DNA of 19,938 nt, taken from the IMG/VR virus record IMGVR_UViG_2737471861_000023. The stretch is one strand, 5' to 3'. This document shows, piece by piece, positions 4,089 to 17,976 of this stretch. The stretch comes from a virus. Its lineage: Duplodnaviria; Heunggongvirae; Uroviricota; Caudoviricetes. The position numbers and the translations under genes were made by a program. How positions within the stretch are numbered: the first letter of the stretch is position 1; each line of letters opens with the position of its first letter. The notes under the pieces are model-generated. The model saw only the letters and a list, made by a program, of their open reading frames with translations. It was not told the DNA's origin and searched no databases.

Positions 4089-4269
4089 AGGATGATCCTT
4101 TTTCTATGTGAATCATCACCACTGCTGACGCCAATCAGTATGGTGGTGAACTGTGCAGGGTTGGCGTAACCGGGAAAAAGGAACCGGCGCGGATCGCTCC
4201 GCCCCCACACAGCCCACCATTGAGATGTGACAGTGCAAACGACAATAAAAAAGACGCTGGCGCGTGAGG

Positions 4270-7224: not shown

Positions 7225-7380
7225 TTACTCCTCAGGTTCGTAAGCTGTGAAGACAGCGACCTCCGTCTGGCCGGTTCGGATTCGTACCTCGCAGAGGTCT
7301 TTCCTCGTTACCAGTGCCGTCACAATGACGGTTAAACAGATGACGATCAGGGCGATTAACATCGCCTTTTGCTGCTTCAT
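7225..7380 (-). CDS. hokD: Hok-family type I toxin, 51 aa (HokD/RelF-like)
   Basis: Translation MKQQKAMLIALIVICLTVIVTALVTRKDLCEVRIRTGQTEVAVFTAYEPEE matches HokD/RelF as recalled. Confidence 0.9.
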   Translation of the reverse strand: MKQQKAMLIALIVICLTVIVTALVTRKDLCEVRIRTGQTEVAVFTAYEPEE

Positions 7381-7560
7381 AGCCTGCTTCTCCTTGCCTT
7401 TCGGCACGTAAGAGGCTAACCTAGATTTGCCGTTCATAGATTGAGCCTCAGATTAATGTTAAGCGTCTTGCAGGACGCGTAATGTTAACTGGGGCTTTTC
7501 TCTATCTGCCTTTGGTGTTCATGCCTGAGGCAGATAGCCTCAATCACCCGCAGCAATTCT
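7381..7560 (-). promoter_or_regulatory. hok mRNA leader: in-frame 19-codon upstream extension (mok-like, ATG at 7437 with GAGG SD), 9-bp inverted repeat 7502..7510/7529..7537; Sok antisense not confidently placed
   Basis: ORF track 7225..7437 is in frame with hok; inverted repeat read from sequence. Confidence 0.4.
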
Positions 7561-12940: not shown

Positions 12941-12958
12941 TGTTTTAAAATCAAAACA
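12941..12958. promoter_or_regulatory. Operator-like palindrome TGTTTT-aaaatc-AAAACA overlapping the repressor start codon
   Basis: Inverted repeat read from sequence; same architecture repeated at 13663..13680; ATCAAAAC also at 12904..12911. Confidence 0.4.
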
Positions 12959-13596
12959 TGAGCAAGCAAACAATATCTGAACGCATAACCCAACGTATGC
13001 ATGCGCTAAACCTGAAAGGCAAAGACCTTGTCAATGCCACTGGCGCATCAAAAGGCTCCGTAAGTCAATGGATGAACGGTGGAGGAGCGCCGTCCTCGCG
13101 TTACATAAGTTCACTGGCAAAGATATTGAAAGTAAACGAAAATTGGCTTCTTAATGGAGGAGAGTTAAATACAGGTGATTCGCTTGATCTATCTTTACCG
13201 CCGATAAAAACGGTTCCGCTACTATCACTTCAGCAGGCAGCAAGCTGGAGTGATTATATGAAAAATTCCTCAATAACCTCTTGTGTGCAGCTTGTCGGAG
13301 AAATCCCGGCCAATACCTTTGCAGTTGTTCTAGAGAGTGACAGTATGTCAACATCTGGTGGGGGAGTTTCCATCCCAAATGGTTCAACAGTTTTTGTTGA
13401 TCCCGATCGAACCGTACAACCAGGAAATATTGTCCTTGCCTTACCCAAAGGGACCACAACACCTGTCATTCGTAAACTGGAGATAGAAGGGCCGGATATT
13501 CTTTTAGTCCCCACGAATCCTCGCTACCCTTCAATTATGCTGGATGATCTATCTTGCATATTGGGCGTATGCTTTAAAATTCAACAAGATATTTAA
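12958..13596 (+). CDS. CI-like prophage repressor: N-terminal XRE-type HTH plus C-terminal S24 (LexA-like) peptidase domain, 212 aa
   Basis: HTH segment (LVNATGASKGSVSQWMNGG) and S24-like C-terminus with Ser (VLESDSM) and Lys (VIRKL); divergent arrangement with the Cro-like gene. Confidence 0.85.
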   Translation: MSKQTISERITQRMHALNLKGKDLVNATGASKGSVSQWMNGGGAPSSRYISSLAKILKVNENWLLNGGELNTGDSLDLSLPPIKTVPLLSLQQAASWSDYMKNSSITSCVQLVGEIPANTFAVVLESDSMSTSGGGVSIPNGSTVFVDPDRTVQPGNIVLALPKGTTTPVIRKLEIEGPDILLVPTNPRYPSIMLDDLSCILGVCFKIQQDI

Positions 13597-14185: not shown

Positions 14186-14344
14186 ATGGAATTTAAAGAT
14201 TTACCTCCAGACACTCAGAAAATCGCCGCAGAAACACTGAAATCTCTCATTTTGAACGGGGAGACAGAAAAGGTAGATCCAGCTAAAAAACTGGCTCAAG
14301 AAATCAGAGAAGCCTTTATTGCTCTTTATCAGTCTTCTCCATAG
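14186..14344 (+). CDS. Hypothetical small protein, 52 aa (MEFKDLPPDTQKIAAETLKSLILNGETEKVDPAKKLAQEIREAFIALYQSSP)
   Basis: Hand-translated ORF 11 nt after ydfB; weak SD; overlaps a convergent minus-strand ORF by 29 nt. Confidence 0.4.
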   Translation: MEFKDLPPDTQKIAAETLKSLILNGETEKVDPAKKLAQEIREAFIALYQSSP

Positions 14345-14501
14345 CGGCTTGTTTTTCTTCTTTTAATATATTGCGGATTGTAATAACTGAATTAGCCGCC
14401 TCTGAAGGGGATGACATTTTGCCAGCCCGAATTAACTCAACTGTTAAGTTCAAAGCTGCAACAGATGGATAGGTAAATGGGTTAATTAACTTGTCTGACA
14501 T
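14316..14501 (-). CDS. Hypothetical small protein, 61 aa (MSDKLINPFTYPSVAALNLTVELIRAGKMSSPSEAANSVITIRNILKEEKQAAMEKTDKEQ), convergent and antisense within the dic operon
   Basis: ATG at 14501 preceded by GGAGG with 5-nt spacer; no family recognised. Confidence 0.4.
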   Translation of the reverse strand: MSDKLINPFTYPSVAALNLTVELIRAGKMSSPSEAANSVITIRNILKEEKQAAMEKTDKEQ

Positions 14502-14832
14502 TTTATCCTCCATTGAGGTTCTGGGTTAAAAATGGAGACCAACATGCTGCCACATGTGGTCGTGCGCCGGACACGGATAAGAATCCGGCACTGACAGTTT
14601 ACTGAAAGGATATATCCCTGAAAAGTCAGGGCATAACGCGAAAGCGCACGGCGAAGTTCGTCTCACTGTACGGTGTCGTTAAATTTAATTCGACCGTGCG
14701 CTTCCGGTTGTGGCACTCCGCGAAATGGCGCGGCGGTACGTATGGCGGGGTTATTCCTTCCCCCTGTTGAGGACACCGGGTTGTCAGGTTGACCATACGC
14801 CTGAGTGACAACCCCGCTGCAACAACCCATGT

Positions 14833-14885
14833 TGATTACCTTTTGGCGGCATCAGTTTCATTGCTGGCTGATGTCCGTCCTTTTT
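14833..14885 (+). ncRNA. dicF: DicF-like antisense sRNA (ftsZ-targeting family) ending in an intrinsic terminator
   Basis: TTTGGCGGCATCAGTTT... and the downstream CTTTTTAAAGTGAATTTTGTGATG.GGTGAATGCGGCT.AGCGCACGCGGAACAG block resemble K-12 DicF and its 3' flank as recalled; stem GGCGGCATCAG/CTGATG(t)CCGTCC followed by T5; exact 5' end uncertain. Confidence 0.55.
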
Positions 14886-15068
14886 AAAGTGAATTTTGTG
14901 ATGCGGTGAATGCGGCTCAGCGCACGCGGAACAGTTAAAAAGGCCAGTTGACTTCCGTATTGGTTCTTATGGGTGGGTTCTCTGTATCCGGCGTTAATTG
15001 TTAACTAGTTAACGTCACCTGGAGGCACCAGGCACCGCATCACAAAATTCATTGTTGAGGACGCGATA

Positions 15069-15251
15069 ATGGAAACGTTATTACCAAACGTCAATACGTC
15101 TGAAGGTTGTTTTGAAATTGGTGTCAGAATCAGTAACCCTGTATTTACTGAAGATGCCATTAATAAGAGAAAACACGAACGGGAGCTATTAAATCAAATA
15201 TGCATTGTTTCAATGCTGGCCCGTTTACGCCTGATGCAAAAAGGACGCTGA
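15069..15251 (+). CDS. dicB: Cell-division inhibitor DicB, 60 aa
   Basis: Translation METLLPNVNTSEGCFEIGVRISNPVFTEDAINKRKHERELLNQICIVSMLARLRLMQKGR closely matches DicB as recalled. Confidence 0.9.
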   Translation: METLLPNVNTSEGCFEIGVRISNPVFTEDAINKRKHERELLNQICIVSMLARLRLMQKGR

Positions 15252-15253
15252 CA

Positions 15254-15457
15254 ATGAATACAGCATTTGCACTCGTTCTGACAGTTTTTCTTAATACAGG
15301 CGAACCAGTCGATCTTGTTATTGGTATACATGACTCAATGAAAGAATGCATGGCTGCCGCAGCGGAACAGAAAATTCCCGGCAACTGTTATCCGGTTGAT
15401 AAAGTTATTCGCATGGACAATAACGAAATCCCGGCAGGACTTAAAACAGCACCGTAA
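15254..15457 (+). CDS. ydfD: YdfD-like small membrane/lysis protein, 67 aa
   Basis: Internal start MNTAFALVLTVFLNTGEPVD... matches Qin YdfD as recalled; AAGGA SD; the track N-terminal extension overlaps dicB and is rejected. Confidence 0.75.
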   Translation: MNTAFALVLTVFLNTGEPVDLVIGIHDSMKECMAAAAEQKIPGNCYPVDKVIRMDNNEIPAGLKTAP

Positions 15458-15537: not shown

Positions 15538-16551
15538 ATGAGTAAAGTCTTTATTTGCGCCGCCATTCCGGACGAACAGGCAATAAAGGAAGAAGGTGCA
15601 GTCGCTGTAGCCACTGCCATTGAAGCCGGCGACGAACGCCGCGCCCGTGCCAAATTTACCTGGCAATTCCTGGAGCAATATCCGGCTGCTCAGGACTGCG
15701 CTTATAAATTTCTTGTTTGCGAGGATAAACCCGGCATGCCCCGCCCTGCCATCGACTCCTGGGATACCGAATATATGCTGGAAAACCGCTGGGATGAAGA
15801 GTCAGCCTCTTTTGTCCCGATCGAACCAGAATCCGATCCGATGAACGTCAATTTTGACAAGCTGTCCCTTGAAGTACAGAACGCGGTCCTGGTTAAGTTC
15901 GGTACATGTGAAAACATCACCGTTGATATGGTGATTAGTGCACAGGAATTGTTGCAGGAGGACATGGCAACATTCGACGGGCATATCGTTGAGGCATTGA
16001 TGAAAATGCCTGAAGTTAACGTCATGTATTCAGAACTAAAGCTGTTCGCCATCGGGTGGGTTAAACATAAATGTAAGCCGGGTGCAAAATGGCCTGAGAT
16101 CCAGACAGAATTACGCACCTGGAAAAAACGTCGCGAAGCCGAACGCAAAGAAACCGGGAAATACACGTCTGTTGTTGATCTTGCCCGCGCCAGAGTCAAC
16201 CGGCAGCACACTGAAAACTCAGCAGGAAAAATCAACCCCGCCACTGCCGCCATTCGTCGCGAATACAAGCAGACATGGAAAACGCTGGATGAAGAACTGG
16301 CCTACGCTCTGTGGCCTGGCGATATTAATGCCGGAAACATTGACGGCAGCATCCATCGCTGGGCAAAAAATGAAGTTATCGACAAAGATCGCGAAGACTG
16401 GAAGCGCATTTCCGCATCAATGCGCAAACAACCCGATGCCGTCCGCTACGACCGTCAGACTATTTTTGGCCTTGTCCGTGAGCGTCCGATCGACATTCAC
16501 AAAGATCCCGTGGCACTGAACAAATACATCACTGAATACCTGGCGACATAG
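15538..16551 (+). CDS. Hypothetical early-operon protein, 337 aa (YdfE-like)
   Basis: Long ORF in the position occupied by ydfE in Qin; sequence identity to YdfE not verified. Confidence 0.65.
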   Translation: MSKVFICAAIPDEQAIKEEGAVAVATAIEAGDERRARAKFTWQFLEQYPAAQDCAYKFLVCEDKPGMPRPAIDSWDTEYMLENRWDEESASFVPIEPESDPMNVNFDKLSLEVQNAVLVKFGTCENITVDMVISAQELLQEDMATFDGHIVEALMKMPEVNVMYSELKLFAIGWVKHKCKPGAKWPEIQTELRTWKKRREAERKETGKYTSVVDLARARVNRQHTENSAGKINPATAAIRREYKQTWKTLDEELAYALWPGDINAGNIDGSIHRWAKNEVIDKDREDWKRISASMRKQPDAVRYDRQTIFGLVRERPIDIHKDPVALNKYITEYLAT

Positions 16552-16554
16552 GGC

Positions 16555-17976
16555 GTGTTTGAGGATGAAGAAACAGACCAGAACACTGCTGATATTCTCC
16601 AGCCGTCAGCAGCACAAACTGATGCAGTGGAAACTGAAGTATCTGATACCCAAAAAAATGAAAGCACGCTGGAAACTGAACCATCTGTAGAGCGTGAGGG
16701 GCCGTTCTACTTCCTTTTCACCGATAAGGATGGCGAAAAATATGGTCGTGCAAACAAACTTTCTGGTCTGAATAAGGCGCTGGCTGCAGGGGCTACTGAA
16801 ATCACGAAAGAAGAATATTTTGCCCGCAAAAACGGCACATACTCAGGTTCACAACAAAATACTGGTGCATCTGACACGATCGCACAACCAGAGCCGGTAA
16901 AAGTTACCGCTGACGAAGTAAACAAAATTATGCAGGCAGCCAATATCAGCCAGCCTGACGCCAATAAGTTGCTTGCTGTATCACGTGGTGAATTTGTTGC
17001 AGGGATTAGCGACCCGAATGATCCGAAATGGGTGAAGGGGATTGAAACCCGCGATTCAGTGAATCAGAACCAGAAAGAAACGGAACAGAACGACCAGAAA
17101 GCGGAACAAAACAGCCCAAATGCGCAACAGGAGCCGGAAAAAGCCTGCACCGCCTGCGGTCAGACCAGCGGCGGCAACTGCCCTGATTGTGGTGCGGTGA
17201 TGGGCGACGCAACGTATCAGGAAACCTTTAATGAAGAAAATCTGGATGAATCTCAGGAAAAAGATCCGGAGGAAATGGAAGGCGCTGAACATCCACACAA
17301 GGAGAATGCTGGCAGCTATCAGGACCACGCCAGCGATAGCGAAACTGGCGAGACGGCAGATCCCTTAATTGCGGTGAACGGTCATCACGTTATCACATCC
17401 ACCAGCAGAGTGTGGTACCACCTGATGATCGACCTTGAAACGATGGGTAAAAAAAGTAATGCCCCCATCGTGGTTATTGGTGCTGTGTTCTTCGATCCGC
17501 AGACCGGGGAAATCGGGCCAACATTTTATATCGTTATCAGCCTGGTTGACGCTATGGACACGGGTGCTGTTCCTGATGGTTCCACCATCGAATGGTGGCT
17601 TGCTCAGTCCAGCGAAGCCAGATCTGCAATTTTAGTTGATCAGGTAAAACTGGTTGACGCTCTTATTCAATTTCGGGAATTCATCAATGAGTACTCGGAT
17701 GAAGAATTCGTTCAGGTATGGGGCAATGGTGCAACTTTCGACAACACTATTTTACGAACCTCGTACGAACGCCTGAACATCCCCTGCCCGTGGCGTTACT
17801 ACAACGATCGCGATGTACGTACAATCGTTGAACTGGGAAAAACTATCGGCTTCGATGCCAGAACAGTTATTCTATTTGAAGGCGTGCGCCACCATGCGCT
17901 GGATGATGCCCGTCACCAGGCGAAATACGTTACAGCCACGATACAAAAACTGATCCCGAATCAGGCTGATTTTTAA
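16555..17976 (+). CDS. DnaQ-like (DEDDh) 3'-5' exonuclease with acidic low-complexity N-terminal half and a CxxC-x7-CxxC zinc-ribbon, 473 aa, GTG start
   Basis: Exo motifs [21 protein letters not shown] and [13 protein letters not shown] in the C-terminal 190 aa; [16 protein letters not shown] zinc-ribbon; start codon uncertain (weak SD, 3 nt after upstream stop). Confidence 0.7.

Follow-up and report, generated by a model that had tools for sequence, protein, structure and literature searches.

A predicted long-range RNA helix and a divergent DicF-slot sRNA allele at the dicF-dicB junction of a lambdoid prophage

The dicF-dicB junction and its described relatives

The dicBF operon is a textbook example of how a prophage controls host division with an sRNA and a small protein. 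Intercistronic RNase III sites are also familiar from other phage early operons, namely the T7 early mRNA sites, the lambda N leader, and sib. The T7 and lambda sites work in the way considered here, in that a long imperfect helix is cut within a polycistronic early transcript, which separates the RNAs and changes the stability or translation of the neighbors. They have no sequence relationship to the helix of this study, which encloses a conserved multi-hairpin RNA, in contrast to a simple stem-loop.

In K-12, RNase III processing of the full-length mRNA is credited with producing the 72-nt DicF (Faubladier et al. 1990, as cited in PMC5069750 and PMC9438474), and a review places the dicF-dicB spacer among the classical RNase III substrates (PMC2777011, citing Faubladier, Cam and Bouche 1990). 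For the K-12 homolog, the RNase III step is therefore taken from secondary citations, and we infer it for the allele described here by analogy. An RNA-seq survey marks site 1649470, between dicF and dicB, as known, with 0 reads in both wild-type replicates compared to 26 in the rnc mutant (PMC5371410, Table S1); this site rests on those 26 reads, and its coordinate lies 8 nt 3' of the left arm of the helix. In a more recent study, the one role given to RNase III is the formation of the upstream 5' end of a 190-nt DicF species (Ragunathan et al. 2023; PMC10448788). The processing site is, thus, a rediscovery, described in K-12 since 1990, and our observation is mostly already explained. What we add is modest: an unannotated and probably re-targeted allele in the DicF slot, the recognition that DicF and KilS appear to share one slot and one processing helix, and a tie between the spacer RNA and the STnc100/PasD class, in which long stems are formed by three arm sequences that are unrelated to each other. 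The basic, long-known picture of dicBF is unchanged by these points.

The DNA analyzed here, called the window, is a stretch of 19,938 nt from a virus of the Caudoviricetes (IMG/VR record IMGVR_UViG_2737471861_000023). Positions 14600-15260 match a lambdoid prophage in E. coli strain EC11 at 99.8% identity; this prophage further contains Q, RusA, hokD, excisionase, and integrase genes. Sequence related to this interval is present in 4,719 of 5,426 complete E. coli genomes. The alignment to K-12 Qin across the dicF-dicB junction showed 91% identity, and the differences cluster within the sRNA body and a single variable inner arm. Pfam placed a DUF1482 (YdfD-like) gene downstream of dicB and a DUF1391 (YdfA-like) gene and a CI-type repressor upstream. 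Since DicB and these three genes are present, together with the identity to Qin and the EC11 context, the locus is by homology the dicF-dicB junction of the early-left (dicBF) operon of a Qin/Rac-type lambdoid prophage. The features of the junction are listed in Table 1.

Table 1. Features at the dicF-dicB junction, in window coordinates
Feature	Position	Strand	Basis
DicF-slot sRNA, variant allele	14830-14885	+	Rfam DicF, 28.6 bits at 14830-14880; K-12-like flanks
Intrinsic terminator	14845-14885	+	Terminator scan and folds; 11-bp stem 14845-14855/14868-14879 with one bulged U
CGUCCUU, predicted partner of the dicB SD region in read-through RNA	14876-14882	+	MFE fold
Long-range helix, 5' arm	14888-14908	+	Perfect Watson-Crick core 14890-14908; repeat search, folds, alignment
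Inner hairpin 1 (GCGGC...GC.CGC)	14912-14927	+	Nearly invariant in the subfamily; helix 2 of the alignment
Variable inner arm	14928-14989	+	Length and sequence vary among homologs, only the 3-bp base is kept; alignment A2, consensus fold
11-bp hairpin GGCGUUAAUUG-UUAAC-UAGUUAACGUC	14990-15016	+	Conserved; helix 4, compensatory changes in 5 of 11 pairs
3' hairpin CCUGG-AGGCA-CCAGG, signature of the STnc100-like family	15018-15032	+	Pattern TCACCNGGAGGCACCNGGCAC, found once in the window
Long-range helix, 3' arm	15033-15053	+	Repeat search, folds, alignment
dicB SD region GAGGACG (SD GAGGA, 15057-15061)	15057-15063	+	1 nt past the last helix pair; sequence, fold
dicB, cell-division inhibitor, 60 aa	15069-15251	+	Pfam PF05358 (DicB), 127.5 bits; RefSeq annotation in the near-identical strain EC11

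Other features of the window were recorded along with the junction. The prophage repressor (12958-13596) has HTH and S24 peptidase domains and is, therefore, probably SOS-cleavable; K-12 DicA is reportedly without the cleavage site. At the place of ydfC, a plus-strand gene in K-12, the window has a 65-aa ORF on the minus strand (14316-14513), which is a hypothetical protein in EC11. A sigma-70-like promoter match on the minus strand (15066-15094; TTGACG, 17-nt spacer, CATTAT), which is a consensus match only, lies within the start of dicB and would drive antisense transcription over the dicF-dicB spacer. Further downstream, two ORFs of 337 and 473 aa (15538-17976) make up one frame split by a single TAG (16549-16551), with an Rv2179c-like 3'-5' exoribonuclease domain in the C-terminal part of the frame. 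RefSeq annotates the EC11 homolog as a frameshifted pseudogene. The TAG could be a nonsense mutation, part of a true two-gene arrangement, or a site of read-through. At gathering thresholds, the only Rfam matches in the whole window were the sok antitoxin RNA (7375-7549, minus strand, 101.6 bits), which lies beside a hokD-type toxin gene in the EC11 homolog, and the C4 antisense RNA (4139-4224, minus strand, 74 bits).

The long-range helix and the RNA it encloses

A sequence-only reading of the window had placed an inverted repeat 3' of the DicF terminator and just upstream of the dicB SD. The repeat search recovered it as two 19-nt arms with 100% complementarity (14890-14908 and 15033-15051) and 124 nt between them. 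In RNA, the pairs G14889-U15052 and A14888-U15053 would lengthen the helix to 21 contiguous pairs, which are followed by one A.G mismatch and then A14886-U15055. When up to three mismatches were allowed, the arm search returned just two copies in the 19.9-kb window, compared to 0.01 expected from shuffles. The segment 14886-15055 folds into the long stem with three or four inner hairpins at an MFE of -71.6 kcal/mol (z = -6.96). The 21 contiguous pairs are in the range of RNase III processing sites, which have at least 20 bp (about two turns) of mostly uninterrupted dsRNA. No plus-strand ORF of at least 30 aa was found in 14886-15055, and a promoter scan found no separate plus-strand promoter for dicB in the spacer.

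K-12 Qin has matching arms (L001 2445-2463 and 2574-2592). They differ from those of the window at 2 of the 19 positions with the pairing kept: two G-U pairs of K-12 are G-C and C-G in the window, where the core of the helix is wholly Watson-Crick. The K-12 spacer also has the same operon position, inner hairpins, and dicB SD and start. It differs from the window in the allele of the upstream sRNA and in the variable inner arm, which is 14 nt longer in the window.

Homologs were collected from viral contigs by the conserved 3' hairpin motif and from species-representative genomes by the 5' junction and first hairpin, and 18 distinct long-stem homologs were aligned (alignment A2). RNAalifold returned the same structure for the 18 homologs as the fold of the window. 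Over 45 pairs, 98.4% of the cells form a standard pair, whereas this fell to 32-43% when the partners were slid by 1-3 columns. Compensatory changes are found in 16 of the 45 pairs, compared to 8.8 ± 1.8 in shuffles, and none of 500 shuffles reached 16. In the long helix, 9 of the 21 pairs have changed on both sides. Many of the compensatory cells are supplied by one lineage (L029/L034/L082), in which both arms have been swapped for an unrelated complementary pair. Independent single events are seen in L070 (U-A to C-G and A-U to G-C) and in L061 (U-A to G-C, in a shifted register), and the Rac-type elements have one bulged A in the long helix. The long duplex proposed from sequence is, thus, conserved in homologous prophages, with paired and covarying arms. 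Since the long helix (helix 1) has about 27 G-U cells and only 3 A.C cells among the 18 homologs, the alignment indicates that it is an RNA structure of the plus-strand transcript and not a structure of the DNA or of an antisense RNA.

Helices of 21-23 bp are built from three unrelated arm sequences, which are the dicF type, the type of L029/L034/L082, and a Citrobacter element (L125, 21 bp). The same arrangement on three unrelated arm sequences suggests that a long duplex was selected repeatedly.

The RNA between the arms was compared with known families. In sensitive mode, the spacer aligned with Rfam STnc100 (RF02076) at 33.0 bits (E = 2e-5; model positions 21-154 of 206), which is below the gathering score of 47 bits, as is the K-12 spacer at 34.4 bits. 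The consensus of the model includes a matching closing stem, and the architecture of STnc100 is present in the window, with its GGUG/CACC closing stem, three or four inner hairpins, and the 3' hairpin UCACCNGGAGGCACCNGGCACC. On this similarity, the spacer RNA is a sub-threshold relative of STnc100. In each of the 71 distinct elements of the family, the stem closes with ..GGUG/CACC.., and its positions 4-8 show covariation. The length of the closing stem is bimodal: it is mostly 4-12 bp, and it is 21-23 bp in the dicF/kilS and L029 types, with 21 bp in the Citrobacter element. In STEC, STnc100 RNA was detected (PMC12370729), and a preprint presents PasD as an sRNA that has a seed region and targets of its own (10.64898/2026.05.13.724894). 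The window element shares with STnc100 and PasD the ..GGUG/CACC.. closing stem, the GGUGAAU junction, the UCACCNGGAGGCACCNGGCACC hairpin, and the prophage location. In contrast, its first hairpin reads GCGGC..GCGC instead of CCCCC..GGGG, its closing stem has 21 bp instead of 4-12 bp, and, unlike them, it sits between an sRNA terminator and a gene start. The link to the spacer gives these widespread and functionally unexplained RNAs a testable handle, which is excision by RNase III.

The inner hairpins also carry signs of conservation. The 3' hairpin shows a compensatory U-A to G-C change, and at least 120 viral contigs contain its pattern TCACCNGGAGGCACCNGGCAC (motif UCACCNGGAGGCACCNGGCAC); this pattern overlooks the K-12 Rac element, which reads CCAGACACC. 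In the 11-bp hairpin, the loop region UUGUUAACUGG is almost invariant in alignment A2. A perfect 14-bp palindrome, GTTAACTAGTTAAC, had been pointed out between the arms, and it is present at 15000-15013. It is not an independent feature, however, as it is the loop and upper stem of the conserved 11-bp hairpin. The consensus at this place is GTTAACTGGTTAAC, and the palindrome becomes perfect here only by one G-to-A change.

The sRNA allele upstream of the helix

The strong terminator hairpin that had been proposed for the end of the DicF-like element was confirmed at exactly 14845-14885 by sequence, terminator scan, and fold. Its stem is formed by GGCGGCAUCAG and CUGAUG(U)CCGUC around the 12-nt loop UUUCAUUGCUGG, followed by C and UUUUU (14881-14885). 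Whether the element is DicF is borderline by the Rfam model (RF00039). In sensitive mode, the alignment is full-length with all but one pair standard (28.6 bits, E = 4e-4), but the score fails the curated gathering score of 48 bits, while the K-12 DicF control scored 76.7 bits. The sRNA has the operon position of the dicBF type, flanked by ydfABC-like genes and dicB, and it ends at a rho-independent terminator. The name DicF, thus, rests on position and hairpin similarity. By analogy with K-12, its 5' end would be made by RNase E.

K-12 DicF and the window allele have in common the slot, the start of the terminator hairpin (GGCGG.AUCAG), the U-tail, and identical flanks from CCUUUUUAAAGUGAA on. 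In contrast, the window allele has a 10-nt deletion in the 5' single-stranded region and the loop UUUCAUUGCUGG instead of UUUUACUCCGUGA, and CUCCG, which pairs with the ftsZ SD in K-12 DicF, is absent. This bears out the remark that the body differs from K-12 while its pairing is kept, since the hairpin pairs are retained and the loop and 5' region are not. Duplexes with ftsZ (-45 to +21) were scored in 22-nt sliding windows because full-length RNAduplex gave unrealistically long duplexes that did not discriminate. With this crude energy model, the best local duplex was -15.6 kcal/mol for the window allele and -22.9 kcal/mol for K-12 DicF, compared to a mean of -17.8 kcal/mol for shuffles. A change of target specificity, which the sequence-only reading had raised, is, therefore, reasonable on this crude model: the ftsZ duplex is no better than shuffles. 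Since the loop and 5' region differ and the anti-ftsZ motif is missing, the targets of the window allele probably differ from those of K-12 DicF, and ftsZ is probably not among them.

The window allele is found in 90 of 5,426 complete E. coli genomes (~1.7%), and an RNA feature is annotated at none of the matches listed. At least eight alleles occupy the slot, with a common stem base, U-tail, and downstream AAAGUGAAUUUUG, and with a loop and 5' region that vary. The window allele has a Qin-type upstream region and a hairpin closest to the alleles of the L042/L095 type, and from this comparison it looks mosaic. KilS, the annotated sRNA of Rac (b4833; K-12 Rac, L124 3906-4003, minus strand), is also one of the slot alleles. 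Its terminator stem, GGCGGCAUCAG and CUGAUGUCCGCC, is that of the window save one C-to-U change, which turns a G-C pair into G-U. As in the window, the same left arm comes next, then a long-stem element and a gene for a division inhibitor, here kilR. In the KilS-linked element, one A is bulged and the 3' hairpin shows a G-to-A change. KilS differs from the window allele in an unrelated loop and 5' (seed) region, a Rac-type upstream region, and kilR downstream instead of dicB. By sequence comparison, DicF in Qin and KilS in Rac seem to be alleles of a single slot upstream of the same processing helix, and DicF is not mentioned in the KilS paper (PMC8175672). Alleles of the DicF slot escape standard annotation, and counts of "DicF", thus, understate the diversity of prophage sRNAs that act on the host.

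RNase III processing and competing explanations

The explanation that we consider probable joins a mostly terminated sRNA, a read-through helix cut by RNase III, and a divergent, re-targeted sRNA allele at a dicF-dicB junction. Most transcripts from the repressor-controlled promoter would probably end at the intrinsic terminator and give a short, U-tailed sRNA. Read-through transcripts would hold a structured RNA of 166 nt (14888-15053), closed by the 21-bp duplex of the inverted repeat. RNase III would cut this duplex near its middle, which would create a longer, alternative DicF-like 3' end. The same cut would split the DicF-like RNA from the dicB message and leave the latter with a short leader. 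The sRNA body would be a divergent allele of the DicF/KilS slot that has kept the stem and U-tail and changed the loop and 5' region.

The position of the known K-12 end is consistent with such a cut. Counting 72 nt from the annotated 5' end of K-12 DicF leads to L001 2454, which is base 10 of the 19 nt in the left arm, with an uncertainty of a few nucleotides, and a count of 19 nt from the end of the U-tract is also still within the K-12 left arm. Together with the conserved, covarying duplex, this gives good support to the claim that the helix is an RNase III substrate. By analogy, the window helix would be cut at about 14899 in the left arm and at about 15043-15045 in the other, so that dicB would be left with a leader of ~25 nt. 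A second long-range helix was predicted 5' of the DicF-like RNA (about 14631-14660 and 14690-14716, core AAGCGCACGG and CCGUGCGCUU). On the window, the 5' end of the 190-nt DicF species of K-12 would lie near 14705, within the 3' arm of this second helix, and in the predicted folds the sRNA appears to be bracketed by two helices of the RNase III type.

Three other uses of the helix were weighed against this explanation. One is that it acts as a translational switch, in which uncut RNA hides the dicB SD and an RNase III cut or refolding of the terminator frees it. With its end at 15053 or 15055 and the SD beginning at 15057, the helix falls inside the region that a 30S subunit usually covers, and the MFE structure pairs CGUCCUU with GAGGACG over 7 bp, in competition with the lower terminator stem. 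The long-stem elements, including those before dicB, kilR, and small hydrophobic peptide genes, share a distance of 13-35 nt from the helix to the start of the next gene. However, the conserved helix stops before the SD, the counterpart in K-12 is just 4 bp and absent from the centroid structure, and the 7-bp extension in the window hinges on a single C-to-U change. Since the same helix precedes unrelated genes with different SDs (kilR, an Ant/Rha-like regulator gene, a 94-aa gene, and small hydrophobic peptide genes), the SD pairing is not conserved and occlusion would at best be specific to the window allele. We, therefore, regard the switch as rather unlikely, and the occlusion or release of the dicB ribosome-binding site suggested in the sequence-only reading as weakly indicated. 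A role as DNA, such as a protein-binding palindrome, a recombination boundary of phage modules, or a cruciform, is highly improbable. The homology of several phages does stop at window position 15053, the end of the right arm, so that the arms coincide with a mosaic boundary, and the spacer has two HpaI-type GTTAAC sites. Against this, pairing that is kept through G-U would be C.A mismatches on the other strand and in DNA, unrelated complementary sequences can stand in for the arms, covariation in the inner hairpins follows RNA pairing, and homologs do not conserve the palindrome. On account of the G-U pairs and the interchangeable arms, we rejected a palindrome or operator that acts as DNA. 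We also rejected an antitermination RNA of the put or nut type, as no evidence for one was found in the window and the element lies after the terminator and not before it.

The remaining possibility is that the inverted repeat is mainly the P1 closing stem of an autonomous RNA of the STnc100/PasD class, which RNase III excises, with the effects on DicF and dicB as by-products. This is compatible with the explanation that we prefer, and we hold it to be a plausible but less probable account of what the repeat is for. It is favored by the STnc100 matches in the window and in K-12, by the closing stem that the model and all 71 distinct elements share, and by the detection of STnc100 RNA and the description of PasD given above. 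A cut in the middle of the helix would also leave ~9 bp, which is usual for the short-stem members. On the other hand, both matches are under the threshold, STnc100 is without an established function, and a stable RNA from the dicF-dicB spacer was not found reported in the literature examined. A broader and more speculative proposal, which we would call possible but somewhat doubtful, is that the long-stem RNAs of this class are cassettes excised by RNase III, in which one cut in the middle of a helix of 21-23 bp has three effects. The upstream hypervariable sRNA (DicF, KilS, or the window allele) would gain an alternative 3' end. A structured RNA of ~145 nt would be freed, with a remaining closing stem of 9-10 bp that resembles that of the free-standing members. 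A toxic or regulatory early gene (dicB, kilR, small membrane peptides, or the Ant/Rha-like regulator) would receive a short unstructured leader. As part of this proposal, the adjoining sRNA slot would itself be an exchangeable cassette, whose alleles re-target the host.

Other arrangements of these elements were seen among the contigs. Two to four STnc100-like copies per contig are present in L010, L020, L022, L038, L046, L077, L088, and L105; the copies are spaced by ~253 nt or 484 nt in several cases, and the downstream sequence differs for each copy. In L126, L144, L145, and L146, the order is reversed, with a short-stem STnc100-like element (closing stem GUUGUGGUG/CACCACAAC) and, immediately after it, a DicF/KilS-like terminator hairpin (GGCGGUACCAG...CUGGUACCGCC UUUU).
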